From the NCBI GenBank assembly GCA_964550955.1, contig CAZKAF010000003.1, forward strand, positions 7,489 through 71,488: DNA of 64,000 bases. Direction: 5' to 3'. Origin of the DNA: an uncultured Candidatus Saccharibacteria bacterium (GTDB lineage: Bacteria; Patescibacteriota; Minisyncoccia; Phycocordibacterales; CAIZLB01). Under the pieces are notes generated by a model. That model made no database searches. It worked only from the letters and a program-made list of their open reading frames with translations, and had not been told where the DNA came from. Below are positions 30,392-61,804 of this stretch, one piece after another (position 1 is the first letter of the stretch; every line of letters begins with the position of its first letter). The position numbers and the translations under genes are program-made.

Positions 30392-31063
30392 TTGCACGAA
30401 TCAAACTGGTATAATTCTGACATGATATATCTTATCGGAGGAACCCCGCGTTGCGGCAAAACTACGGTAGCGAAGAGGCTGGCGAAACAATTAAACATAT
30501 CTTGGATAGCGACTGATTATTTAACAGCGTCAGCTTTTCAGTTTATCCCGGAACATGAACAGGGTAATAATTTTCCATTAAGCAAGGCATATGAAGAATA
30601 TGGGACGAACGATGGCGTGTATCGGCAGTATTCAGCTCAGGAAATTGCCGGTTTTTACAAAAGCCAAGCTAAAACGATGTGGCCAGCGGTCAAGATGTTC
30701 ATGCGGGCGGCAGTGCGTGACGGTGAAGATTTTGTTCTTGAGGGATATCATTTTTTACCGCAACTTGTCGCAGGGTTGGATGAAGAAATCATAAAGAATA
30801 TCAAAGTCGTGTTTTTATACAGGGAAGATGTCGCTGATATTGAAACTAATCTACGGAAGGGGAGTCATCCTGAGGATTGGGCGATACAGAATACTCAGAA
30901 TCAATCCACATTCGTCAAAATAGCAGAAATGATTTCTACGTATGGATTAGAGATAAAAAATGAGGCAGAGGAGTGCAACATGCCCGTATTCTGTATGGAT
31001 GGAAGCTTTGAAATTAATGTCAAAAAGGCGGTCGATCAGATTCTTTCAGAATCAAACGCATGA
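30392..31063 (+). CDS. P-loop NTPase/small-molecule kinase-like protein (2-phosphoglycerate kinase/AAA_33-like)
   Basis: Walker A GGTPRCGKTT near the N-terminus (true start may be MIYLIGG at 30422); ~220 aa. Confidence 0.4.
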   Translation: MHESNWYNSDMIYLIGGTPRCGKTTVAKRLAKQLNISWIATDYLTASAFQFIPEHEQGNNFPLSKAYEEYGTNDGVYRQYSAQEIAGFYKSQAKTMWPAVKMFMRAAVRDGEDFVLEGYHFLPQLVAGLDEEIIKNIKVVFLYREDVADIETNLRKGSHPEDWAIQNTQNQSTFVKIAEMISTYGLEIKNEAEECNMPVFCMDGSFEINVKKAVDQILSESNA

Positions 31064-31683
31064 AATTAATCTACTTTGTTCGTCATGGTGAGTCTGATGC
31101 GAACGTCAATCAAAATGCGCGAAGCTCCAACCTCCTGACAGAAAGGGGGCTGGGACAAGCAAGAGTCGTTGCCGAGCGGTTTAAAAATATCAGAGTCGAA
31201 AAGCTCATCGAAACGTCAAAGGCTCGCTCCAAACAAACAGCGGAAGCAATCAAGGCGGTCATACATTTGGAACCAGAAGAAAATGACCTTTTCATAGAAC
31301 GTGCAGGGGAGTTTGAGGCGATGTACGAGTATAAGCATCTTTCCGTTCCAGAGCTTACGGAAGCCATGAAGAAAAAGCTTGATAAGACCCACTGGGATTA
31401 TGAAAAGCAGGAACTCTTTGAGACGCTGAAGGAAAGGGTAAAAAAGGCAACTGAATATCTTGAGAACATCCCGGAAGAAAGAATTGCTATCGTAACGCAC
31501 GGAGCGTTTCTTAAGGTGCTGCTAGCTTATTTCATTTTCAAAGATTCGCTTACGGAAGAACAGGCGGTTCTGTTTATGAAAGGTACGGCTACAACAAATA
31601 CGGGCATTACCCTGTGCAAATTCAACACTGAGAAAAGGGAATGGAGGCTGATCACTTGGAACGACGAGTCGCATCTGGGTTAG
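31060..31683 (+). CDS. histidine phosphatase superfamily protein (phosphoglycerate mutase-like)
   Basis: RHGES catalytic motif at the N-terminus (IYFVRHGESDAN) and C-terminal VTHG; 4-nt overlap with the upstream gene. Confidence 0.65.
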   Translation: MKLIYFVRHGESDANVNQNARSSNLLTERGLGQARVVAERFKNIRVEKLIETSKARSKQTAEAIKAVIHLEPEENDLFIERAGEFEAMYEYKHLSVPELTEAMKKKLDKTHWDYEKQELFETLKERVKKATEYLENIPEERIAIVTHGAFLKVLLAYFIFKDSLTEEQAVLFMKGTATTNTGITLCKFNTEKREWRLITWNDESHLG

Positions 31684-31711
31684 TATTTTCAAATACAGAA
31701 ATCAGTCCCCT

Positions 31712-32347
31712 TTGAAAAAAAGTGTCTTAATTCAGAGAGCTTGCTATAATCTTCACATGAAAAAGCATCTCGGAAAAAGGCTGTTCGTCACGGGAATTCC
31801 CACGGCAGGGAAGTCGTATCTTTCCCGAAAACTTGCAGCAGAAGTCGGCGGCATTTCGGTTTCCCTGGATCACCATAGGCAGGCAATAAGTTCTGATCCG
31901 AGATATCAAAAATGGATTCAGTTCTATTGGAATGTGGACGAGAAGGAATACTTTTCCAAGACGATTCCTGAGCAGCAGTGGCAAAATCTAGTTAACCAAT
32001 CCGAAGCGCTTTGGCCGGCGTTTATGGAAAAGATCAATTCGTACAGCGAAGAAACGAAGCCCGTCATCTTCGAATGCGTAAACATGCTGCCTCATATCGT
32101 CAAGAAGGATATTGATTTTCCGGGCATCGTTCTGGTCGGAACTTCCTATGAGACCATTCTCGAAAGAAACATCGCTGACCCTCGATGGGGCAATACGAAA
32201 GAGCTTCAGGAGATGGAAGCCTTCTCTTTCTTTAACGTGGAACGACCGAACTATATCAAAGAGGCCGAACGGTTCGGATATCAGGTATTTCAGACGGCCG
32301 ATGAAGCGTACGAGGCGGCAAAGGCTCTCTTGATTGAAGCGCTGTAA
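31712..32347 (+). CDS. P-loop NTPase/kinase-like protein, paralogous to 30392-31063
   Basis: Walker A GIPTAGKS; start may be MKKHLGKRLFVTG at 31757. Confidence 0.4.
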   Translation: MKKSVLIQRACYNLHMKKHLGKRLFVTGIPTAGKSYLSRKLAAEVGGISVSLDHHRQAISSDPRYQKWIQFYWNVDEKEYFSKTIPEQQWQNLVNQSEALWPAFMEKINSYSEETKPVIFECVNMLPHIVKKDIDFPGIVLVGTSYETILERNIADPRWGNTKELQEMEAFSFFNVERPNYIKEAERFGYQVFQTADEAYEAAKALLIEAL

Positions 32348-48797: not shown

Positions 48798-49484
48798 ATG
48801 TTGACACAGTTCATTACAATGCGAAGCGTTCAGTCCAGATTCGCGGCCATTTACGGGGCAAAAAACCAGGAAATGGGCCTGACCAAGGCATATCTGCGGC
48901 TGAATTTCAGGGTGGCCAGCTTTCCGGCGGCTGTCCGGAGAAAGGATTTGGAAACGGCAAAAAGCCTCGCGGCTCAGATTTTTGCCTGGATCGCAGGCAT
49001 CGCCAATCATCCGGATATCGGCATCGATTTGTACGAGCGTCTGTTGGACAAATTCCCGAACGCTTGTCCGTACTGCGGCGATTCGCCGCATACGTGCGCG
49101 GTCACGCGACCCGAATCCAGGCTCTCCCCGGAAGAGCTGGCAAGCTTGAGAAGGGGCGTTCCCGAGGGCATCGATGTCCAGCTCATGATGCACAACATCT
49201 ATCCGGAAAACGCGCTTGATACAAGCGTCGAGCACCTGGGAGCCGAGTGCGGGGAACTGGGACAGGAGCTCGCCAAGGAATCGCTTGCCGGCATGGAGAC
49301 GGAGCTGGTGGACATGCTTGCCCACCTTTTGGCGATTGCGAATCTTCTGGATTTCAGCCTGCTGGACGAGACGCTGCTTGCCTTCAAGGAGGGCTGTCCG
49401 AGCTGCAAGGGCCAAGTTTGCGCCTGCGGCGAATTCCATCAGGAAAAAGTCGGCACTCGGCCAGCCGATCCTTTTCCTGGCTGA
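48798..49484 (+). CDS. MazG-like nucleotide pyrophosphohydrolase domain protein with Cys clusters
   Basis: start set at MLTQFITM; EHLGAECGELGQELAKE...ELVDMLAHLLAIANLLDFSL resembles the MazG/NTP-PPase helix pair; CPYCGDSPHTC and CPSCKGQVCACGEF zinc-ribbon-like. Confidence 0.4.
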   Translation: MLTQFITMRSVQSRFAAIYGAKNQEMGLTKAYLRLNFRVASFPAAVRRKDLETAKSLAAQIFAWIAGIANHPDIGIDLYERLLDKFPNACPYCGDSPHTCAVTRPESRLSPEELASLRRGVPEGIDVQLMMHNIYPENALDTSVEHLGAECGELGQELAKESLAGMETELVDMLAHLLAIANLLDFSLLDETLLAFKEGCPSCKGQVCACGEFHQEKVGTRPADPFPG

Positions 49485-49573
49485 GTCTTCGACGCAGCCG
49501 TCACGCGGCTGAAACATGCGGCGCCTCCTTTTGTGGGGCGCCGTTTTTCGTGCTATATATATGTACAAATACC

Positions 49574-51523
49574 ATGAAACTGCTTATCAAAGAAACCTTG
49601 GAAAATATCGTCCGGGAACTCGGCTTCATTCCTGGCGAGCCTGAGTCGTCCAGTTCCGATTCCGATGCCAAATCTGAATCCGCACTGCTGCAGTTTGTCA
49701 TCGAGCGTCCTGCCGACATGACTCATGGAGACTATGCGACGAATGTCGCCATGGTGCTCGGTCCGAAGCTGAAGAAATCTCCCATCTCCGTTGCGATAGA
49801 CGTCGTCGATGCCTTCAAGGGCAGGATGCAAGGCGACGCCGAACTCTCCGCTGCCGTCGAGAGCGTCGAGGTTGCCGGTCCCGGTTTCATAAACATCAAG
49901 CTCAAGCCGCAGGTGCACAAGAAAGAAATCCTGAAAATCATGGAAGCCGGCGAATCATACGGCTCTCAGGAAACTCTGTCGGGCAAAAAAATAGTTTTTG
50001 AATACACTGATCCGAATCCGTTCAAGGTTTTTCATATTGGCCACCTCATGTCCAACACGGTAGGGGAAGCGCTTTCGAGGATTGCTGAGAAAAACGGCGC
50101 GAGCGTCAGGCGGTACTGCTATCAGGGAGATGTCGGCAGGCATGTCGCGCTGACCATCTGGGGCCTCCGATTCATGAATCAGGATCTCCCGAATGATGAC
50201 GCGAGCGTTTCGGACAAGGTCGCGTACTTCGGCAAGGCATATGCGCTCGGCGCCACCGAGTATAAGCGGCTTGAAGAAGAGGCTAAAAAAAACGGGCAAG
50301 TTGATTCAGAGACGAACATGCCGAACTCGGAAGCGTTCCTTTCCGCGGACAAGGAGGTCCAGCTCATAAACAAGAAGATATATGAGAGAAGCGATGGGGA
50401 GATAAACGAATTGTACGATATCGGCAAGGAATGGAGCCTCGAGCATTTCGAGGAACTGTATGAAATCCTCGGAACGAAGTTCGATCGGTATTTCTTCGAA
50501 AGCCAGGCCGCGCCTCTCGGAATCAAGACGGTGAAAGAAAATATTTCGCCGAAGGGGCTCAAGGTTTTCGAGGAGAGCAACGGGGCCGTCATTTTTCCTG
50601 GCGAGAAATACGGACTTCATACGCGGGTGTTTCTGACGCGAAACGGCCTTCCTGGATATGAGGCCAAGGAGCTTGGCCTCATGCCGCTGAAGTACGAAGC
50701 CGAAGCATATGACAAGTCGGTCATCCTTACGGCCAGCGAGCAGAATGAATATTTCAAGGTAGTATCGAAGGCTGCCGAATTCTTGTTTCCCGAGATAGCG
50801 CCGAAGAATGTCCACGTCTCTCATGGCATGCTCAGGCTGACGACGGGCAAGATGTCTTCGCGAACGGGCGACGTGATTACCGGCGAGTCGCTGCTAAAAT
50901 CCATGATCGACCTTTCGATGGAAAAGATGCGGGAGCGGGAGATGTCCGATGAGGAAAAGAAAAGCGTCGCGGAGGCCGTAGCCGTGGCTGCCATCAAGTA
51001 CACGGTGCTCAGGCAGGCGCCGGGAAAGGATGTCATTTTCGATTCGGAAAAATCCCTGTCATTCGAGGGCGATTCCGGTCCGTACCTGCAGTACTCGTAT
51101 GTACGAGCCCTGTCTCTGCTTGATAAGGCTCAAAAAGAGGGAATCGCTGATTGTGGTTCAGAGGACATTGAGGGCCTTGCTGAAGAAGGAGACAAGGGTG
51201 TTGATGGAAAGGGCGCGGAAGTTTCCGGAAATGATAATGCCAAAGCCGCCAGTTCCCATCTGGATCAGTCGGAAAGGCTTGAGCGGCTTTTGGGCAGATA
51301 CGGGGAAATCGTGGAGAAATCATGGGACGGGATGGCGCCGCACGGCCTCGCGAATTACCTCATGGAACTTGCCGGCACGTTCAACTCATTTTACGCCTCA
51401 ACTCAGATAGTTAAGGCGAATGATGCCGGGTCGCCATATAAGGTGGCCTTGGTTAAGGCTTTCTCCGTAGTCATGAAGGACGGCTTAAATGTGCTTGGCA
51501 TCAAATCTCCTTTAAAAATGTAG
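49574..51523 (+). CDS. argS: arginine--tRNA ligase
   Basis: start at MKLLIKETLENIV; class I HIGH motif (FHIGHLMSNTVGEALSRI), ...YCYQGDVGRHV, C-terminal DALK-type anticodon-binding end. Confidence 0.85.
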   Translation: MKLLIKETLENIVRELGFIPGEPESSSSDSDAKSESALLQFVIERPADMTHGDYATNVAMVLGPKLKKSPISVAIDVVDAFKGRMQGDAELSAAVESVEVAGPGFINIKLKPQVHKKEILKIMEAGESYGSQETLSGKKIVFEYTDPNPFKVFHIGHLMSNTVGEALSRIAEKNGASVRRYCYQGDVGRHVALTIWGLRFMNQDLPNDDASVSDKVAYFGKAYALGATEYKRLEEEAKKNGQVDSETNMPNSEAFLSADKEVQLINKKIYERSDGEINELYDIGKEWSLEHFEELYEILGTKFDRYFFESQAAPLGIKTVKENISPKGLKVFEESNGAVIFPGEKYGLHTRVFLTRNGLPGYEAKELGLMPLKYEAEAYDKSVILTASEQNEYFKVVSKAAEFLFPEIAPKNVHVSHGMLRLTTGKMSSRTGDVITGESLLKSMIDLSMEKMREREMSDEEKKSVAEAVAVAAIKYTVLRQAPGKDVIFDSEKSLSFEGDSGPYLQYSYVRALSLLDKAQKEGIADCGSEDIEGLAEEGDKGVDGKGAEVSGNDNAKAASSHLDQSERLERLLGRYGEIVEKSWDGMAPHGLANYLMELAGTFNSFYASTQIVKANDAGSPYKVALVKAFSVVMKDGLNVLGIKSPLKM

Positions 51524-53793: not shown

Positions 53794-53924
53794 TGGGGAA
53801 AGCAAACTGCCGCCCAAGTCATTGCATCCGACGCATTTTGATATTATATTAGGTGCAATTATATAAGGCTTCCGGGCCTGTGCACTATATAAGTATTAGA
53901 CGCTTCATTCTACATATATACGCC

Positions 53925-54971
53925 ATGGCTGATGCACAAAAGACGAATCAATACGAAATAATCCTGTATTACAAATACCTCGATCTTGCCGATCCGCAGG
54001 GCTTTGTCGATTGGCATAAGATGGTCTGCGAAAACCTGGGCCTCAAGGGCAGGGTGCTCATCGCAAGGGAAGGCATTAACGGCACGCTCGAAGGCCGAAC
54101 CGAAGACGCGCTTGAATACTGCAGGCTCATGCATCAGCAGGACGGTTCGGGGGGAACGTTCGGCGACTTCAGGGACGTTGTTTTCAAGCGAAGCCCGGGA
54201 ACAGGCTTCTCGTTTCCGAAGCTTAAGGTGAAGCTGCGAGACGAGGTCGTTTCTCTCAAGCTGTCTCACGGTTCCGACGTCAATCCCAATGAGACGACGG
54301 GCATACATCTGAAGCCGGAGGATCTAAAGAAATGGTATGAGACAGGCGAAGACTTCCTTGTCGTGGACATGAGGAATGACTATGAGTACAAGGTGGGACA
54401 TTTCAAGGGATCGATCAATCCGAAAATGACGAACTTCCGCGACCTGCCGGACGCGTTGCCGAAGCTCGAAGACGCGAAGAGGGCTTCAAGGGAAGGCAAG
54501 AAGATTCTCACCGTCTGCACGGGCGGCATTCGATGCGAAAAGGCATCCGGCTTTCTCCTGAAGAACGGCTTTGAAAACGTGTATCAGCTCGACGGGGGAA
54601 TGCATTCGTACATGGAGAAATTTCCCGGAGAAGATTTTCTCGGAGCGCTGTATGTTTTTGACGGAAGGGAAACCATGGCATTCACTGACAAGCGGCCCGT
54701 CATCGGCACGTGCGAGGTCTGCGGCGAGACGACGGAGCTGTTCACGAACTGCGCGAACATAAAATGTCATGGGAAAATGCTTTGCTGCGACGCATGCAAG
54801 TCGAACTCGCTTGAGGAGGCGGACCAGCTTTCCGCGCGGAATCCAGGAACGGCGGATGTCATCGAAAAGATTCTCAAGAAAGAGACCACGGCTTTCGTCT
54901 TCTGTTCCGGCCAGTGCCGCGAAAAGGTCATGAGCTTGGCGCATGCCCGGCCGGCTGTCCCGGCAAGGTAA
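53925..54971 (+). CDS. trhO: rhodanese-domain protein TrhO/YceA-like (tRNA U34 hydroxylase family) with C-terminal Cys-rich extension
   Basis: start at MADAQKTNQYEIILYYKY; rhodanese active-site CTGGIRCEKA; C-terminal CxxC clusters. Confidence 0.65.
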   Translation: MADAQKTNQYEIILYYKYLDLADPQGFVDWHKMVCENLGLKGRVLIAREGINGTLEGRTEDALEYCRLMHQQDGSGGTFGDFRDVVFKRSPGTGFSFPKLKVKLRDEVVSLKLSHGSDVNPNETTGIHLKPEDLKKWYETGEDFLVVDMRNDYEYKVGHFKGSINPKMTNFRDLPDALPKLEDAKRASREGKKILTVCTGGIRCEKASGFLLKNGFENVYQLDGGMHSYMEKFPGEDFLGALYVFDGRETMAFTDKRPVIGTCEVCGETTELFTNCANIKCHGKMLCCDACKSNSLEEADQLSARNPGTADVIEKILKKETTAFVFCSGQCREKVMSLAHARPAVPAR

Positions 54972-55565
54972 GATTCTGAAAAAAATGACCAGGCTCCCTG
55001 AATGCCCGGTCGTTTGACTTTATTATTTTTCGGGAGCAGAATGAGATTCCAGATGCTCTTTGGTTCGTGATCGCAAGTCACGAAGGGCGTCTTCTCAAAT
55101 CCAACAACACATGAAAGGCGACTAATCGCATGTTGACATCAAGCAAACTCATTCCTGGAAGCTGTGCCTATCAGCGGGCATGGAAAAAGCTCCACCCGGA
55201 TGCCACTCCTTCAACCAGCCGCATGGCCGGTTCAAGAAGCGGCGGAAATGCCCGTCAAATTCCCTTGAGGGTCAGGGTAAGGTTCCTCAGATGAGCTGCC
55301 ATTGATGCGAAACCGTCACCGACTCACCATTCCGATCTCGAAAAAAAAGAGATGCTGGTCAGCCGTGAGCTGCGTGACAAGCGCCGATAGAACCGGAGCT
55401 CCATATGAACGCTAACCCCCCGCTTGGTGCAATGCCAGGCGGGGATTTTCATTGCCTGCTCAGGCCGGTTGTCGCCGGTTCTTCGAGGTGCTAGTATGTT
55501 TTTATTGCGCGGCCGAGCCGTAAAAGCGGGCCATGCAGCTTTAGAAAATAATAAAATTTCATAAA

Positions 55566-58500
55566 ATGGCAGAGCAAACCAATCCAAAGCCCCAGACAGA
55601 GGTACATGCGGGCGATGCACTCAAGACAGTCTCTGCCCAGAGGGAAGAAGCAGTTCTTTCCTTTTGGCAGAAAAACCATATATTCGAGAAGAGCCTGAAG
55701 AAGGATTCTCCCAAGGGCAATTTCGTAATTTTTGACGGTCCTCCTTATGCGACGGGACTGCCGCACTACGGGCACATGCTGCCTTCGACCATAAAAGATA
55801 TCATCCCTCGGTACAAGACGATGCAGGGATATTTCGCGCCGCGCCGATGGGGCTGGGATTGCCACGGCCTTCCCATCGAAAACCTCATAGAAAAGCAGCT
55901 TGGACTCCGAGACAAGAAAGCTATCGAAGAGTACGGTATCGGCAATTTTAATAAAGCTGCAAAAGACAGCGTATTCGGATACGACAAGGACTGGAAGCGG
56001 ATCATCCGAAGAGTGGGCCGATGGGTCGACATGGAAAATGATTACCACACCATGGACTCAAGCTACACCGAGTCCGTCTGGTGGTCTTTCAAGGCTCTCA
56101 ATGAAAAAGGCCTCGTATACGATGCATTCAAGGTGATGCCGTACTGCCCTCGATGCGAGACATCGCTTTCAAACTTCGAAGTGGGTCAGGGATACAGAGA
56201 TATTCCTGATATTTCTGCATACGTGCTTTTCCCGGTTCTTGGAACTGATGGCAAACAGACTGAGGAAAATTTCCTTGCATGGACTACGACCCCGTGGACT
56301 CTTCCTGGAAATGCCGCACTCGCACTTAACCCGGAGCTTGAATACGTTCTCGTGAAGGCAAAAACTTCCGCAGGCTCTGCGCTCGTATGGGTTGCAAAAG
56401 ACCTTGTTGAGAAGCTTGCCTCAAAAGGGATTCTTCAGAAGCCCGAGGCAGGCGACGCTGCGGCCGATGCCGGTTCGGAATTAAGCGCCCTTAAGACAGC
56501 CAGGGGCTCGGAACTTTCCGGCCTGTCATACGCAGCGCCGTTCGACTTCTATGCGGCTGCAGGAAGCATGTCGTCCGACCAGGAGCCGAAGCGCCGGAAC
56601 GCTTGGAAATCATACGCTGCGGATTTCGTGACGGCAGAAGACGGAACTGGCATCGTGCACGTTGCTCCCGCGTTCGGAGACGACGACTCGAAGCTTGCTC
56701 AGGCAAATCATGTTCCGGTCATCCAGCATGTTGAGCGAAACGGCCAGCTTGCTCCAGGTCTCGGAAACCTCTCGGGTCTTCAGGCAAAAGCGAAAGGGGA
56801 CCATCAGTCTACTGATATCGAGGTCATCAAGCTTCTTGCCCATTCGACGACTTCGAGCGGAAACCCTCTTCTTTTCGCGAAGGAGAAGCTCGTGCACTCG
56901 TACCCGCATTGCTGGAGATGCGAGACTCCGCTTCTCAACTACGCGACAGCGTCTTGGTTTGTCGAAGTGACGAAGATCAAGGACCGGCTTATCGAGGCGA
57001 ACGACGGCGTAAATTGGGTCCCGAAAGAAGTGGGCGAAGGCCGATTCGGAAAATGGCTCGAGAACGCGCGAGATTGGGCGGTATCGAGAACGCGCTACTG
57101 GGGCGCGCCTCTTCCGGTATGGAAAGGCGAGAAGACCGGCCGGGTTGAATTCATCGGTTCTGTTGCCGAGCTCAAGGAAAAGATTTCGAGCAATGGGAAC
57201 AGCTTCCTTCTCATGCGGCATGGCGAGTCCGAATCGAACACGAAGAACGTCATAAATTCAAGCGCCAGGGACCTTGACTTGCATCCGCTGACTGAAACCG
57301 GCAAGACGCAGGTTGAATTGTCGGTCCGGAGCATAAAGGAGCGGCAGGAAAAAACGGGCAGGAGAATAACTAAGATTTACGCTTCTGACTTCAGGAGAAC
57401 GCGCGAGACGGCCGAGCGAACGGCGGAGGCGCTCGGCCTCGATCCGGCCGAGATAGTCTTCGATGCGCGCCTTCGGGAGGTGAATGCGGGGGATTTTGAC
57501 GCGGGTCCGTGGTCCGCAAGATTCGAATCCTTCGACGGCCTGCATGATGCCTTGTTCAAGAAGTGCCCGAACGGGGAATCAGTTTTTGACGTGAAAAAGC
57601 GGGCGACGGAATTCTTATACGACATCGAGGCGAAGCATCAGGACGAGGACGTTCTCATCGTGACTCACGGGCTCCCGCTCAGGCTCATGCTCTGCGCGGC
57701 CGAAGGGAAAACCGCGCGAGACCTGCTTCGGTCCGGATGGAGAGATTATTCTGATCCTCTCGCGTCGATTCATGAATGCGACTTCAAGCCGCTGCCTCAT
57801 AACGAAGATTTCGAGCTCGACCTTCATCGGCCGTTCATAGACGAGGTGACTTGGATCGCAAAGACGCCTTCCGGCGAAACGGAAATCATGCGAAGGATTC
57901 CCGACGTGTTCGACGTGTGGTATGACTCGGGATCGATGCCGTTTGCTCAGAACCATTACCCGTTCGAGGGGAAGGAGGAATTCGAGAAAAAAGGGAGCGT
58001 CCTGTTCCCGGCCGACTTCATTTCCGAAGGGATTGATCAGACGCGAGGCTGGTTCTATTCGCTCATGGTCCTTTCCGTCGCGCTTTTCGGAAAGAGCCCG
58101 TATAGGAACGTCACGGTAAGCGGTCTCATCCTCGCAGAGGACGGAAGGAAAATGTCCAAGAGCCTGAAGAATTATCCGGACCTCGAGCCCACGCTTGAAA
58201 AGTACGGCGCCGACTCCCTGCGATTCATGCTTGCTTCGTCGCCCGCGACCCATGCCGAAGAAGTCCTGTTCTCGGAGAAGTCGCTCGACGAGGTTAATAA
58301 GAAAATATTCAACAGGCTTGAAAACGTATATTCGTTCTACAAGATGTACGCGGCCGAGGGCTTGGAAGGGGAAACCCTGTCTGCAGATTCCGCGCCGCAA
58401 AGCGCGCACGTTCTCGACAGGTGGATACTCTCGCGCCTTTCGGAACTCAAGTCCGATATCGAGAGAAACCTCGACTTGTACCAGATAGACAAGGCGGTCC

Positions 58501-59285
58501 GGCCGATATCCCTTTTCGTGGACGACATATCGACATGGTATCTTCGAAGGTCCCGAGACAGGTTCAAGGGCGACGATGGGCAAGACAGGCAATTCGCCAT
58601 AGACACGACGAGGTTCGCGCTTCTGACCGTCTCGAAGCTTCTCGCCCCGTTCGTGCCGTTCATGGCAGAGCACATGTACCAGAATTTGAAGAAAGATATT
58701 TCGGAGGCGAGCTCGGCCCTCGCCATAACGATGCCTGAAAGCGTGCATTTGTGCGATTGGCCCATGCTTCCGCAGGCGGACAGCGCGCTCGTCGATTCGA
58801 TGGAGTCTCTTCGAAAGCTCGTCGAAAGCGGCTTGGCGCTCAGGTCAAAGGCCGGCATCAAGGCTCGGCAGCCGCTCGCTTCGTTCACGTATGACGCGGA
58901 CGAGCTGGTTCTCGCGGACGAGCTCGTCGAAATCATGGCCGATGAATTAAACGTGAAGAAAGTATCGGCCGGCACTGAAATTTCGCTCGATACCAGCCTG
59001 ACCAAGGAATTGAAAGACGAGGGCCTCGTCAGGGACGTGATTCGTTCCGTGCAGGAGGGCCGAAAAATCGCCGGACTTAATCCGGGCGATCCCATAATCC
59101 TTTCGCTCGGTTCTGATTCCGAGACTCGGGAAATCCTGAAGTCTCATGCGCAGATGATACGGAAGCCCGTGCTCGCGGAAGACATGCTGTTTGTCGAGCT
59201 GGACGCCGATTCGAATCATGTGCTCGAAACTGATTCTGCAAAGATAAGCATCAGCATCAATGTCCCATCACATCTATCAGACTAA
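55566..59285 (+). CDS. ileS: isoleucine--tRNA ligase (eukaryote-like type) with inserted histidine-phosphatase domain
   Basis: HYGH (HIGH) motif, WGWDCHGLPIE, KMSKS; a ~210-aa insert begins with LLMRHGESESN and ends with ...VTHGLPLRL, sitting between IGSVAELKEK and DLHRPFIDEV. Confidence 0.9.
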   Translation: MAEQTNPKPQTEVHAGDALKTVSAQREEAVLSFWQKNHIFEKSLKKDSPKGNFVIFDGPPYATGLPHYGHMLPSTIKDIIPRYKTMQGYFAPRRWGWDCHGLPIENLIEKQLGLRDKKAIEEYGIGNFNKAAKDSVFGYDKDWKRIIRRVGRWVDMENDYHTMDSSYTESVWWSFKALNEKGLVYDAFKVMPYCPRCETSLSNFEVGQGYRDIPDISAYVLFPVLGTDGKQTEENFLAWTTTPWTLPGNAALALNPELEYVLVKAKTSAGSALVWVAKDLVEKLASKGILQKPEAGDAAADAGSELSALKTARGSELSGLSYAAPFDFYAAAGSMSSDQEPKRRNAWKSYAADFVTAEDGTGIVHVAPAFGDDDSKLAQANHVPVIQHVERNGQLAPGLGNLSGLQAKAKGDHQSTDIEVIKLLAHSTTSSGNPLLFAKEKLVHSYPHCWRCETPLLNYATASWFVEVTKIKDRLIEANDGVNWVPKEVGEGRFGKWLENARDWAVSRTRYWGAPLPVWKGEKTGRVEFIGSVAELKEKISSNGNSFLLMRHGESESNTKNVINSSARDLDLHPLTETGKTQVELSVRSIKERQEKTGRRITKIYASDFRRTRETAERTAEALGLDPAEIVFDARLREVNAGDFDAGPWSARFESFDGLHDALFKKCPNGESVFDVKKRATEFLYDIEAKHQDEDVLIVTHGLPLRLMLCAAEGKTARDLLRSGWRDYSDPLASIHECDFKPLPHNEDFELDLHRPFIDEVTWIAKTPSGETEIMRRIPDVFDVWYDSGSMPFAQNHYPFEGKEEFEKKGSVLFPADFISEGIDQTRGWFYSLMVLSVALFGKSPYRNVTVSGLILAEDGRKMSKSLKNYPDLEPTLEKYGADSLRFMLASSPATHAEEVLFSEKSLDEVNKKIFNRLENVYSFYKMYAAEGLEGETLSADSAPQSAHVLDRWILSRLSELKSDIERNLDLYQIDKAVRPISLFVDDISTWYLRRSRDRFKGDDGQDRQFAIDTTRFALLTVSKLLAPFVPFMAEHMYQNLKKDISEASSALAITMPESVHLCDWPMLPQADSALVDSMESLRKLVESGLALRSKAGIKARQPLASFTYDADELVLADELVEIMADELNVKKVSAGTEISLDTSLTKELKDEGLVRDVIRSVQEGRKIAGLNPGDPIILSLGSDSETREILKSHAQMIRKPVLAEDMLFVELDADSNHVLETDSAKISISINVPSHLSD

Positions 59286-59844
59286 CGCGTTCGTGCTAAG
59301 CAGCTCGAATTCAGGCGAAGCCAACAAGACGCTGCTCCTTCTCACGGAAGAGCTCGGCGTCGTGTACGCGGCCGCTCAGGGGGTGCGCCTGCAGAAGTCA
59401 AAATTGAAGGCCTCCATTCAGGACCTTTCGTACATCAGGGTCTGCCTGGTGAAAGGCAGGGAGGTCTGGAGACTTACGAGCGCCGAGAAGCTGATATCGC
59501 TCTATGACAGGCGCCTCTCTCCCGCTTCGCGGAAAATGCTCGCTCAGGTCCTGCAGTTCGTCCAAAGGATGTCGCCCGGAGAAGGCAGGCAGAAAGACCT
59601 GTTCGAGATGCTGACGAAGCTTTGCGCGTTCGTGTTTCAGAGCAAGTCTGAACATCCGGGCCTGATTTCTTCGGTTGCCAAATTCAGGATTCTGCATGCG
59701 CTCGGATACGGTTCCGTTGACGCCGATCTCATGAAGGCATATGGCGGCTCCGCTTGGAATGAAGAATTGATGAAAGCGTCCGAAAGCGACAGGAAAGCGC
59801 TTGAGAAGCACATCGAATCCGCTCTTCGGGAAAGTCATTTATGA
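59260..59844 (+). CDS. recO: DNA repair protein RecO-like (short form)
   Basis: N-terminal OB-fold pattern TNAFVLSSSNSGEANKTLLLLTEELGVVYAAAQGVRLQKSKL; overlaps the ileS 3' end by 26 nt. Confidence 0.4.
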   Translation: MSHHIYQTNAFVLSSSNSGEANKTLLLLTEELGVVYAAAQGVRLQKSKLKASIQDLSYIRVCLVKGREVWRLTSAEKLISLYDRRLSPASRKMLAQVLQFVQRMSPGEGRQKDLFEMLTKLCAFVFQSKSEHPGLISSVAKFRILHALGYGSVDADLMKAYGGSAWNEELMKASESDRKALEKHIESALRESHL

Positions 59845-59857
59845 TATACTTTTGCAT

Positions 59858-61804
59858 ATGTCCAACGATGACAGCAGGATCGAACAGCTGAAGAAGAGGC
59901 TTTATTCTAATTCGGAAACGGAAGGCGTTCCGGTTCAAAACCGGTCAAAATTGCCAAGGCACAGCGTGCTCGTGGACAAGAGCTGGCAGGCCGAGCCGAC
60001 CGAGGAAAATCCGGTCATTCGGCCCGACTTCGTGAAGCTGAACCAATATGAAGACAGAAGCCCCTTGAAAAAGGTGCTCCTTTTCGTATTCGTGCTTTTT
60101 TTCCTGGCGCTGGCGTTCGCGGGATACATCATCTTCAGCGGCTCGAACTTCGTCTCGAACAGCAATATCGATATTCGGCTGATCGGACCCGTGACGTCTC
60201 CGGCAGGAGAAGAGCTGTCGCTCGACATCGACATAACGAATCGCAACAAGACGGATCTCCTGCTTGCCGATATCGTAGTCTCATATCCGGAGGGGACGAG
60301 AAGCGCGAGCGACAAGATAAGCCCCTTGCTGACGGACAGGGTGGCCGTCGGCACCATAAAAGCCGGCGCCTCTACTCGAATCACGGTCAAGTCGATACTC
60401 TTCGGCGAGCAGGACGTGAAGAAAAATATCAACGTCGCCTTGGAATACGGCATCCCCGGCTCAAGCAACATTTTCGTGAAGGACAAGCAGTACCCGATGT
60501 TCATCGGCTCTTCTCCCATCACGGTCAACGTCGAGGCGCTCAGGGAGATAACGCCCGAGCAGGAAGCCGATTTCAAGGTCCTGGTGAAATCAAACAGCGC
60601 TTCCATCATCAGGGGCCTCATTCTGAAAATCGAGTATCCGTTCGGATTCGAATTTATCAGCTCGTCTCCTCAGACGACGGGGGATTCGGGCACCTGGGTT
60701 CTCGGCGACGTGAATCCCGGAGAGGAGCGCGAAATCACGTTGAAGGGCAGGATTATCGGCGGAGAAAATCAGGAACGGGTCTTCCGGTTCTATACGGGCA
60801 CTGAAGATCCGAGCGACAAGACTTCCATCGGCACCATTTTCGTGACGAATACGGCCACCGTCGCCCTCAAGAAGCCGTTCCTTGGCGCGGACATCTCGCT
60901 TGACGGCAAGACATCCTCGACCTACGTGACGTACGCGGGCGAAAATGTCAAAGGGGAAATCACGTGGCAGAACAATCTCAATGTTCCCCTGAACGACGTC
61001 GTGATAGAAGCGCGCATCAACGGCGAGATGCTGGACCGGCTGAGCATTCAGGGCGATCGGGGCTTCTATCGGTCGGTAGATAACACCATCCTTTGGGACA
61101 GGACGACATTGTCCGAATTGAGGGAAGTCGGCCCCGGACAAATCGGAAGGCTGCAGTTCTCATTTTCTCCGATCGACCTGACGACGAAAACCGGATCCGA
61201 GCTTCGAAGGCAGGAGATGACAATCGACCTGACCATACGGGCCAAGCGATTCAACGAGGGCGATGTGCCCGTAGAAATTGTCTCGAACATCGCGCGCAAG
61301 GTTCAGATCGCTTCGAACCTTGATATCACGACCGGCGCGCTTCGAACTATCGGCCCGTTCCAGAACACGGGTCCGATACCTCCGATGCCCGAAGTCAAAA
61401 GCACCTATACTATATATGTCAGCGTCAAGAATTCATTTAACAGCGTGAAGGACGCGGTCTATACGGCGACGCTTCCCGCATATGTTGAATGGCTCGGCAC
61501 GACATTTCCGGACAATACCGGCGTTCGCTACAATGCGGACACGAGGCAGATTACCTGGTCCATCGGCGACATACAAGCAGGAACAGGCTACTCGTCAAGC
61601 CTCAAGGAGTTTGCGTACCAAGTGACCCTTCTTCCGAGCTTGAGCCAGATCGGATCGTCGCCGATACTCGTGAGCGGTCAAAAGCTGGTCGGCCGCGATA
61701 ATTACACGGGAACCATCGTCGAGAGCAAGGTCCAGTCCGCCGATACCAAGATAAGCACTGACCCGACGTACAAGTTCGGCGATGAGAAAGTGGGCGGCCA
61801 GTAG
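59858..61804 (+). CDS. large single-TM membrane-anchored extracytoplasmic hypothetical protein
   Basis: start set at MSNDDSRIEQL; one TM (LLFVFVLFFLALAFAGYIIF) followed by ~550 aa of predicted beta-rich extracellular domain. Confidence 0.45.
   Translation: MSNDDSRIEQLKKRLYSNSETEGVPVQNRSKLPRHSVLVDKSWQAEPTEENPVIRPDFVKLNQYEDRSPLKKVLLFVFVLFFLALAFAGYIIFSGSNFVSNSNIDIRLIGPVTSPAGEELSLDIDITNRNKTDLLLADIVVSYPEGTRSASDKISPLLTDRVAVGTIKAGASTRITVKSILFGEQDVKKNINVALEYGIPGSSNIFVKDKQYPMFIGSSPITVNVEALREITPEQEADFKVLVKSNSASIIRGLILKIEYPFGFEFISSSPQTTGDSGTWVLGDVNPGEEREITLKGRIIGGENQERVFRFYTGTEDPSDKTSIGTIFVTNTATVALKKPFLGADISLDGKTSSTYVTYAGENVKGEITWQNNLNVPLNDVVIEARINGEMLDRLSIQGDRGFYRSVDNTILWDRTTLSELREVGPGQIGRLQFSFSPIDLTTKTGSELRRQEMTIDLTIRAKRFNEGDVPVEIVSNIARKVQIASNLDITTGALRTIGPFQNTGPIPPMPEVKSTYTIYVSVKNSFNSVKDAVYTATLPAYVEWLGTTFPDNTGVRYNADTRQITWSIGDIQAGTGYSSSLKEFAYQVTLLPSLSQIGSSPILVSGQKLVGRDNYTGTIVESKVQSADTKISTDPTYKFGDEKVGGQ

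Follow-up and report, generated by a model that had tools for sequence, protein, structure and literature searches.

How does a complete phosphatase come to lie in the middle of a tRNA synthetase, and what could it do there? The question is raised by a 64,000-nucleotide stretch of contig CAZKAF010000003.1 (positions 7,489 to 71,488 of the forward strand, assembly GCA_964550955.1) from an uncultured Candidatus Saccharibacteria bacterium, an ultra-small member of the Patescibacteria; this whole stretch is hereafter called the window. Its ileS gene encodes an isoleucyl-tRNA synthetase (IleRS), an enzyme essential to translation, of 1239 amino acids (aa). An initial annotation of this DNA had placed an in-frame insert of about 210 aa in the catalytic core of the enzyme, and our analysis bore this out: the insert measures about 204 aa (residues 537-740), interrupts connective peptide 3 (CP3) and is a generic branch-1 histidine phosphatase (HP). 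The gene, termed ileS::HP here, has the following parts.

55566-59285, plus strand: ileS::HP, encoding a 1239-aa type-2 (eukaryote-like) IleRS with a nested histidine-phosphatase domain (open reading frame (ORF) call, Pfam, NCBIfam, AlphaFold2 (AF2))
55566-57173, plus strand: N-terminal part of IleRS, residues 1-536 (aligns to residues 9-474 of structure 8c8v)
55764-55775, plus strand: HYGH, the HIGH signature, residues 67-70 (located as a motif in the first Rossmann half)
57174-57785, plus strand: nested histidine-phosphatase domain, residues 537-740 (Pfam core at residues 548-723, nucleotides 57207-57734)
57216-57224, plus strand: RHG motif R551-H552-G553, with H552 as the predicted phospho-accepting nucleophile (invariant in 120/120 best homologues; aligned with the RHG of PhoE, 1ebb/1h2e)
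57396-57398, plus strand: R611, predicted second phosphate-binding arginine (invariant in 120/120)
57477-57479, plus strand: E638, predicted general acid, i.e., proton donor (invariant in 120/120)
57666-57668, plus strand: H701, second catalytic histidine, in a THG motif (invariant in 120/120)
57786-59285, plus strand: C-terminal part of IleRS, residues 741-1239 (aligns to 8c8v residues 476-848; Pfam)
58149-58163, plus strand: KMSKS, residues 862-866 (located as a motif)

The synthetase itself is readily recognized. Pfam found tRNA-synt_1 in two stretches of the ORF 55566-59285 product, with His_Phos_1 between them and Anticodon_1 and DUF5915 (E=3.5e-17) behind, and the protein scored 842.4 bits on the NCBIfam ileS model TIGR00392 (cutoff 621.4). 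Among solved structures in the Protein Data Bank (PDB), its best matches were 8c8v, 8wnd and 1ile (E about 1e-205), which identifies it as a type-2 IleRS, whereas the type-1 structures 8c9e and 1ffy matched much more weakly (E about 1e-90). In keeping with type 2, it ends in a DUF5915-type domain where other bacterial enzymes have a zinc-binding one. The N-terminal part holds the first Rossmann half, the connective-peptide core, the CP1 editing domain with its motifs intact (TTPWT at residue 241, GTGIVHVAP at 360), CP2 and the first half of CP3. The C-terminal part continues with the second half of CP3, the second Rossmann half (DVWYDSG), KMSKS, the anticodon-binding domain and the C-terminal DUF5915 domain. 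An AF2 model of nearly the full length (residues 22-1221) reached a predicted local distance difference test score (pLDDT) of 86.6 and a predicted template-modelling score (pTM) of 0.76, with the insert staying above 90, and its IleRS body superimposed on IleRS2 structures with Foldseek template-modelling (TM) scores of 0.73-0.80, normalised to the target. An identical 1239-aa protein is encoded on three contigs from separate sequencing runs, so the gene is not an assembly chimera. The G+C content of the insert equals that of its flanks.

Where the phosphatase breaks into the synthetase was determined by alignment to Priestia megaterium IleRS2 (8c8v). Residues 22-536 of the window protein correspond to 8c8v residues 9-474 and residues 741-1134 to 476-848. 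From the limits of these flanking alignments, about 204 residues (537-740, nucleotides 57174-57785) face about one residue of 8c8v; at the same point, relatives without the insert have 4-10 residues. The interval 57130-57830 given in the initial annotation translates into residues 522-755 and correctly brackets the insert, and the sequence blocks that it had named as flanks (WGAPLPVWKGE..IGSVAELKEK and DLHRPFIDEV..DVWYDSGSMPFAQ) are present as described.

This point can be assigned to a known subdomain. In Candida IleRS, CP3 comprises residues 473-534, and CP3 topology differs among all solved IleRSs, being zinc-binding in Thermus (PMC7191050). Window residue 539 aligns with Candida residue 498, which places the break inside CP3, the last connective-peptide subdomain ahead of the second Rossmann half. 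The model shows elements of CP3 on both sides of the phosphatase, two strands and a helix ahead of it and a beta-hairpin behind. The paired CP3 cysteines of P. megaterium IleRS2 are absent from the window protein, at residues 521, 524 and 765 (nucleotides ~57126-57137 and ~57858-57860). Cysteines at these positions are kept in about 14 of 120 insert-bearing homologues, indicating that the phosphatase did not simply replace a zinc knuckle.

The identity of the nested domain rests on sequence, fold and catalytic residues, which agree. PF00300 (His_Phos_1) matched residues 548-723 with 108.5 bits (curated cutoff 21.7, E=4.2e-31). Both motifs from which the phosphoglycerate mutase (PGM) superfamily had been proposed are present, LLMRHGESESN at the start and LIVTHGLPLRL around the second histidine, and the full catalytic set of R551, H552, G553, N558, R611, E638 and H701 aligns with the residues of PhoE. 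When a 215-residue segment holding only the insert was modelled, it folded as an independent domain (pLDDT 95.3, pTM 0.92). Foldseek returned 258 PDB matches for this model at E<=0.001, and the best 50 all belong to the histidine phosphatase superfamily. The closest structures were PspA, GpgP, PhoE and a riboflavin-pathway phosphatase (TM 0.67-0.72); the first three act on small molecules and have a cap subdomain. Among solved proteins, the nearest in sequence was PhoE (1ebb/1h2e, E=1e-10), followed by its relatives.

A more specific name could not be given to the domain. CobC (TIGR03162, alpha-ribazole phosphatase) was the best-scoring named family in NCBIfam, yet with 75.1 bits against a cutoff of 162.9. 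PspA (NF045917), though the best structural match, reached 63.1 of 350 bits. Scores on the models for 2,3-bisphosphoglycerate-dependent phosphoglycerate mutase (dPGM) were equally insufficient (NF038349, 60.6 vs 225; TIGR01258, 25 vs 81.7; GpmB NF002901, 57.6 vs 261), and SixA also stayed under its curated cutoff. As no equivalog cutoff was reached, the substrate is not assignable by homology. The initial annotation had seen no intein or homing-endonuclease motifs, and a Pfam search of the ileS product likewise found no intein, Hint or homing-endonuclease family at E<=0.01; together with the histidine phosphatase fold, this led us to reject a mobile element of that kind.

The insert is under selection: PF00300 is carried by all of the 120 best database homologues (48-100% identity), and the seven catalytic positions are invariant throughout. 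Mean pairwise identity within this set was 0.45 for the insert, compared with 0.54 for the anticodon-binding domain and 0.37 for the C-terminal domain. Against the closest relative (L001), the proportions of nonsynonymous and synonymous differences per site (pN and pS) were 0.17 and 0.79 in the insert and 0.09 and 0.64 in the remainder of ileS; only pN and pS are reported, with no formal dN/dS, as synonymous sites are saturated even in this comparison. Purifying selection on the insert is evident from these alignments.

How widespread is the arrangement? The fusion is conserved across Paceibacterota, and 22 species-representative loci of Patescibacteria carry the fused gene; the closest named relative is a Candidatus Paceibacterota metagenome-assembled genome. 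The architecture had been called unusual, which holds against every solved or described IleRS but not within a large clade of Patescibacteria, where it is the norm. Database labels of the fused proteins read only 'class I tRNA ligase family protein' or 'isoleucyl-tRNA synthetase'. To define the family, a profile built from the insert alignment was searched against 1.84 billion cluster representatives, 244 of which matched at E<=1e-30. We refer to proteins at this threshold that are adjacent to ileS or argS, or nested in IleRS or valyl-tRNA synthetase (ValRS), as the synthetase-associated histidine phosphatase family; the window insert belongs to it. Among the best 150 of the 244 representatives, 103 had synthetase flanks, 41 were short, free-standing or fragmentary, and 6 were of other kinds, mostly with two phosphatase domains and no recognisable flank. 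More than 100 independent clusters share the same in-frame architecture, and the only host proteins among the best 150 were IleRS and ValRS.

Most fused copies (107) use the CP3 site of the window protein, and the R-H-G/A-N-R-E-H signature is kept in nearly all of the 167 copies, with few scattered departures at single positions. Some IleRSs carry additional phosphatases. A second copy stands in tandem at CP3 in P0172, P0193 and P0219; a copy occupies a loop near window residue ~805 (~800-815) in P0126, P0134 and P0245; and P0134, P0210 and P0245 have one in a loop near ~935 (~930-950), between the post-KMSKS helix and the anticodon-binding domain.

A possible source of the insert became apparent from the free-standing members of the family. 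These make up at least 120 clusters, which bear the names Staskawiczbacteria or Parcubacteria and whose annotation goes no further than 'PhoE' or 'histidine phosphatase family protein'. We looked up eight free-standing members (189-196 aa) at their loci. In six, the phosphatase gene directly abuts ileS, five times in the same direction and 1-11 bp upstream of it and once convergently; the other two loci could not be resolved. Where the neighbouring IleRS is complete (949-984 aa), it lacks the insert. With argS located upstream of the phosphatase in seven of the eight loci, the block in Staskawiczbacteria reads argS-HP-ileS-(small ORF)-recO-DUF11/CLIPPER. In the window and in all 22 species-representative fused loci, the corresponding block is argS-(peptidoglycan-binding)-(trhO-like)-ileS::HP-recO-DUF11, and none of these blocks contains a free phosphatase gene. 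In three of the 22 loci, argS almost directly joins ileS::HP.

Free proteins and nested segment align colinearly, starting about 12 residues ahead of the RHG motif and ending with the last strand, which means that the nested domain equals an entire free-standing phosphatase of ~190 aa plus linkers of about 6-10 residues. Mean identity between free and nested forms is the same as that among nested forms (0.34). Two observations on individual members may be added. P0486, a free phosphatase of 195 aa, is labelled 'isoleucyl-tRNA synthetase' by the Joint Genome Institute (JGI), presumably an annotation-propagation error carried over from fused proteins. At the convergent locus (L031, 2682-5609, minus strand), ileS is called as two ORFs (412 and 554 aa) with the break near window residue ~450-460, which could reflect a frameshift, an error of assembly or an IleRS that is truly split.

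Three further parts lie elsewhere in the window.

49247-51523, plus strand: argS, the upstream member of the conserved block (Pfam tRNA-synt_1d, DALR_1, Arg_tRNA_synt_N)
59260-59844, plus strand: recO-like gene, a downstream member of the block (Pfam RecO_N)
31060-31683, plus strand: free-standing histidine-phosphatase ORF, 207 aa (NCBIfam and BLASTP)

The last of these had been put forward as a free paralogue of the insert. The ORF exists, but it is a distant relative, and the true counterparts are the ~190-aa genes beside ileS in other lineages. It shares 31% identity with the insert (E=6e-12), and its mean identity to the synthetase-associated family (0.23) is below that within the family (0.34). 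We therefore rejected it as the source of the insert.

Are such fusions confined to IleRS? Three long proteins in our set (P0122, P0247 and P0258) proved to be ValRSs with two to four phosphatase copies; P0247 scored 997 bits on the valS model (cutoff 704). They represent a large family in Gracilibacteria and Peregrinibacteria with one to four phosphatase domains per protein. About 70 of the best 120 ValRS matches carry the domain; they range from ~1030 to 1626 aa, and ValRS sequences that lack the insert are interleaved with them. The insertion point lies between residues 419 and 432 of T. thermophilus ValRS, i.e., between WWGHxIPxWY and DxxDTWFSS, and is exactly homologous to the CP3 site in IleRS. 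Neither of two insert-less valS loci that we examined has a phosphatase gene beside valS. This suggests that neighbour capture, for which these loci offer no donor, does not explain the ValRS fusions.

Taken together, we favour, at somewhat better than even confidence, a bifunctional enzyme that arose when ileS captured the phosphatase gene upstream of it, the tie to class Ia synthetases being under selection. In an ancestor of the window's clade, the phosphatase gene between argS and ileS would have moved ~1.6 kb downstream, into the part of ileS that encodes the CP3 loop, leaving the upstream slot empty; duplications and further insertions would have followed in some lineages, and ValRS would have acquired the phosphatase separately. 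The product would still work as the housekeeping IleRS, while a surface loop of CP3 at the rim of the synthetic site would carry a complete PhoE/PspA-like phosphatase. What the analysis shows is the anatomy and fold of the protein, its conservation, and the distribution and synteny of the family; catalytic activity, the direction of the capture, the class of substrate and the functional coupling are deduced from these.

What this phosphatase would do can be outlined from the chemistry of its superfamily. In histidine phosphatases, the histidine of the RHG motif accepts the terminal phosphoryl group, a glutamate protonates the leaving group, and water then frees the phosphate. Every residue that this chemistry needs is conserved in the nested domain, from which we infer that it is an active phosphomonoesterase. 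R551, R611 and N558 would bind the terminal phosphate of the substrate, H552 would attack this phosphate, with E638 donating a proton to the leaving group, and from the resulting phospho-histidine intermediate the phosphate would be released by water that H701 helps to position. Given the capped pocket and the nearest structural relatives, the substrate is most likely a small phosphomonoester, possibly nucleotide-like, rather than a macromolecule. The initial annotation had suggested a part in editing, in turnover of diadenosine tetraphosphate (Ap4A) or nucleotides, or in moonlighting. Of these, Ap4A hydrolysis and the editing of adenylates are chemically unlikely, since enzymes of this fold pass a terminal phosphoryl group on to histidine.

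Selection, rather than accident, most likely lies behind the physical coupling to class Ia synthetases. Nesting of this family has occurred repeatedly and, among its best 150 members, only into IleRS and ValRS, in the latter without the help of synteny, and its catalytic residues have been kept. Synteny alone would not show such coupling, because recO is equally syntenic with ileS. This is also the first of several points that speak against a bifunctional enzyme shaped by selection: gene adjacency is a weak sign of a functional link, and recO has no known connection to ileS. The phosphatase activity is predicted from conservation only, and the direction of events, capture as opposed to excision, follows from parsimony and not from rooted trees. 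To our knowledge, aminoacylation involves no obvious small phosphomonoester; AMP and pyrophosphate are its sole phosphate-bearing products, and neither is an attractive substrate. Finally, no single-site mechanism readily accounts for the presence of several copies in one chain.

Could the fusion have arisen without any link to aminoacylation? An adjacent housekeeping small-molecule phosphatase might have been captured neutrally into an insertion-tolerant loop and kept for its own activity. Ancestral adjacency in a gene-dense, promoter-poor genome offers a simple route to such an event, recO and DUF11 are equally syntenic without a functional link, CP3 tolerates change, as its topology differs from one solved IleRS to the next, and the other insertion sites are variable or low-confidence loops. 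We give this explanation a modest chance; it leaves unexplained the independent nesting in ValRS of other phyla, with no phosphatase beside valS, the extra copies at two other IleRS loops, and the finding that IleRS and ValRS are the sole hosts among the best 150 family members. A more specific function would follow if the tRNA itself were the substrate, an idea that we regard as doubtful. The domain would take a phosphate or pyrophosphate off the 3'-terminal A76, or clear a 3'-phosphate that a ribonuclease has left behind, and make a blocked tRNA chargeable again, at a repair or anti-toxin site reached much as the CCA end swings into the CP1 editing domain. Nesting is specific to the tRNA-handling IleRS and ValRS and independently recurrent, and CP3 springs from the rim of the synthetic site. 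The lesion is real: toxSAS enzymes transfer pyrophosphate onto the 3'-CCA terminus of tRNA and thereby block aminoacylation (10.1101/2021.04.30.441581; PMC11559606). A single flipped-out 3'-phospho-nucleotide would fit the capped small-molecule pocket, and the nearest NCBIfam models include the nucleotide-type CobC and an RNase H/acid phosphatase fusion. Set against this, the domain is slightly acidic (mean net charge -4.5), though the whole protein is acidic too, free-standing family members have no RNA-binding appendage, and two to four copies per chain would be needless for one CCA end. We also know of no branch-1 histidine phosphatase that acts on RNA ends, and the accessible part of the IleRS-tRNA paper names CP3 only as a domain, with no tRNA contact described. 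In its broadest form, the idea holds that class Ia synthetases of the candidate phyla radiation (CPR) gained a third catalytic site, a phosphatase acting on their own substrate cycle, for example by dephosphorylating blocked tRNA ends before charging. We consider this speculative and improbable on present evidence, and place the same low expectation on its corollary, a built-in tRNA repair or anti-toxin function that evolved repeatedly in IleRS and ValRS.

Histidine phosphatases such as SixA, Sts-1 and PGAM5 act on proteins, and HipA- and HipT-type kinases target class I synthetases. The nested domain might thus be a protein phosphatase acting in cis on the synthetase, e.g., reversing phosphorylation of the KMSKS region by such kinase toxins. 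All three IleRS insertion sites are indeed within or adjacent to the KMSKS-bearing second Rossmann half. Nevertheless, the best structural matches are small-molecule enzymes with a capped pocket, no protein phosphatase appears among the top 50, and we know of no kinase that targets IleRS or ValRS; a role in cis is very unlikely. The two remaining explanations are effectively excluded. For an inert structural module that replaces the CP3 zinc knuckle or mediates oligomerisation, one could cite that the window protein has lost the CP3 cysteines of P. megaterium IleRS2 and that histidine phosphatases often dimerise, but an inert module hardly accounts for seven catalytic positions that are invariant in 120/120 homologues and retained in nearly all 167 copies, nor for the ~14/120 homologues that keep the cysteines alongside the insert. 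Least credible of all is an artefact or selfish element, be it an assembly chimera, a frameshifted neighbour, an intein or a homing element. A conserved ...PHNE at the C-terminal junction superficially recalls the HN motif of inteins; yet three independent contigs carry the identical protein, over 100 clusters share the in-frame architecture, no intein or endonuclease family matches, the fold is that of a histidine phosphatase, and the G+C content does not depart from the flanks.

Several known systems lend themselves to comparison. The nested domain shares its fold, its length of ~200 aa, the cap and the catalytic set with PhoE/YhfR of Geobacillus stearothermophilus (1EBB, 1H2E), PspA/iPSP1 of Hydrogenobacter (4IJ5) and mycobacterial glucosyl-3-phosphoglycerate phosphatase (GpgP; 4QIH, 6S2Q). 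These are free-standing metabolic enzymes, whereas the phosphatase described here is nested in, or encoded beside, a tRNA synthetase. Likewise, P. megaterium IleRS2 (8C8V) and Thermus thermophilus IleRS (1ILE) have the same domain order, including DUF5915, and the same HIGH, KMSKS and editing motifs, but the CP3 of solved type-2 IleRSs is short, in contrast to the CP3 of the window IleRS, which is split by a 204-aa enzyme domain. The CP1 editing domain provides a precedent for an inserted second site serving the same tRNA, being likewise hydrolytic and nested in a connective peptide. It is universal and ancient and acts on aminoacyl esters, while the phosphatase is found in certain lineages, has an unrelated fold, belongs to an enzyme class that acts on phosphate esters and sits in CP3.

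Fusions of comparable kind exist. In the RNase H/acid phosphatase of the Mycobacterium Rv2228c type (NF005567), a CobC-like phosphatase is fused to a nucleic-acid enzyme; this model was the second-best NCBIfam match of the insert (74 bits, far under the cutoff of 326). That fusion is end-to-end and has a different partner, while the window phosphatase is nested. The family NF040702, IleRS with an N-acetyltransferase (GNAT) domain, shows that IleRS can carry an extra catalytic domain; the window protein is not a member (313 bits, cutoff 1999), and its added domain is a different one. In the searchable full-text literature, we found no published description of a histidine-phosphatase/synthetase fusion, be it in IleRS, in ValRS or in Patescibacteria, and the accessible parts of a domain-insertion survey and of an IleRS evolution preprint do not describe it. 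Extra domains of synthetases are thus a known theme, whereas for a histidine phosphatase nested in IleRS or ValRS no description was found.

Further observations concern the genes around ileS::HP. The window argS ORF is 758 aa long, compared with 531-577 aa in related loci, and Arg_tRNA_synt_N starts at residue 122; either the GTG start was placed too far upstream or there is a real N-terminal extension of ~120 aa. Between argS and ileS, at 53853-54971, lies a UPF0176/rhodanese gene (TrhO-like, of the tRNA U34 hydroxylase family), as in most fused loci, which makes it another tRNA-related member of the conserved block. The ileS leader that follows (54972-55565), at 594 nt of unusual length, lacks a convincing ORF and contains a strong terminator-like hairpin with a 12-bp stem at 55418-55444, about 120 nt before the start codon. 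An Rfam search of the 594-nt leader gave no match, and conservation was seen only in the closest relative and in the last ~70 nt near the start codon; a regulatory RNA was therefore rejected. On the other side (59260-61804), recO overlaps the end of ileS by 26 nt, counted to its stop, and is itself overlapped by 44 nt by a DUF11/CLIPPER-like ORF. These overlaps speak for a densely packed ileS-recO-DUF11 block that is probably co-transcribed; all related loci conserve it. The more distant phosphatase ORF 31060-31683 has a P-loop AAA_18-like, kinase-like ORF on either side (30392-31063, which it overlaps, and 31712-32347); together, 30392-32347 may form an operon of kinase, phosphatase and kinase that has nothing to do with the IleRS insert.

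Few enzymes have been studied as thoroughly as the aminoacyl-tRNA synthetases, and their accessory domains, whether for editing, tRNA binding or signalling, have repeatedly revealed new biology. Here, a complete and conserved second enzyme of an unrelated class is found at the rim of the active site in hundreds of uncultivated lineages of Patescibacteria. The coexistence of fused forms, unfused adjacent forms and parallel insertions into ValRS amounts to a Rosetta-stone signal that points to phosphate-ester hydrolysis and tRNA charging acting in partnership. The finding could reveal a missing step in how organisms with minimal genomes carry out translation or maintain their tRNAs. The locus would also illustrate clearly, and from nature, how a gene can be captured into the interior of the one beside it. 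Even if the link to aminoacylation turned out to be neutral, the family would still document how reduced genomes build multi-enzyme polypeptides.

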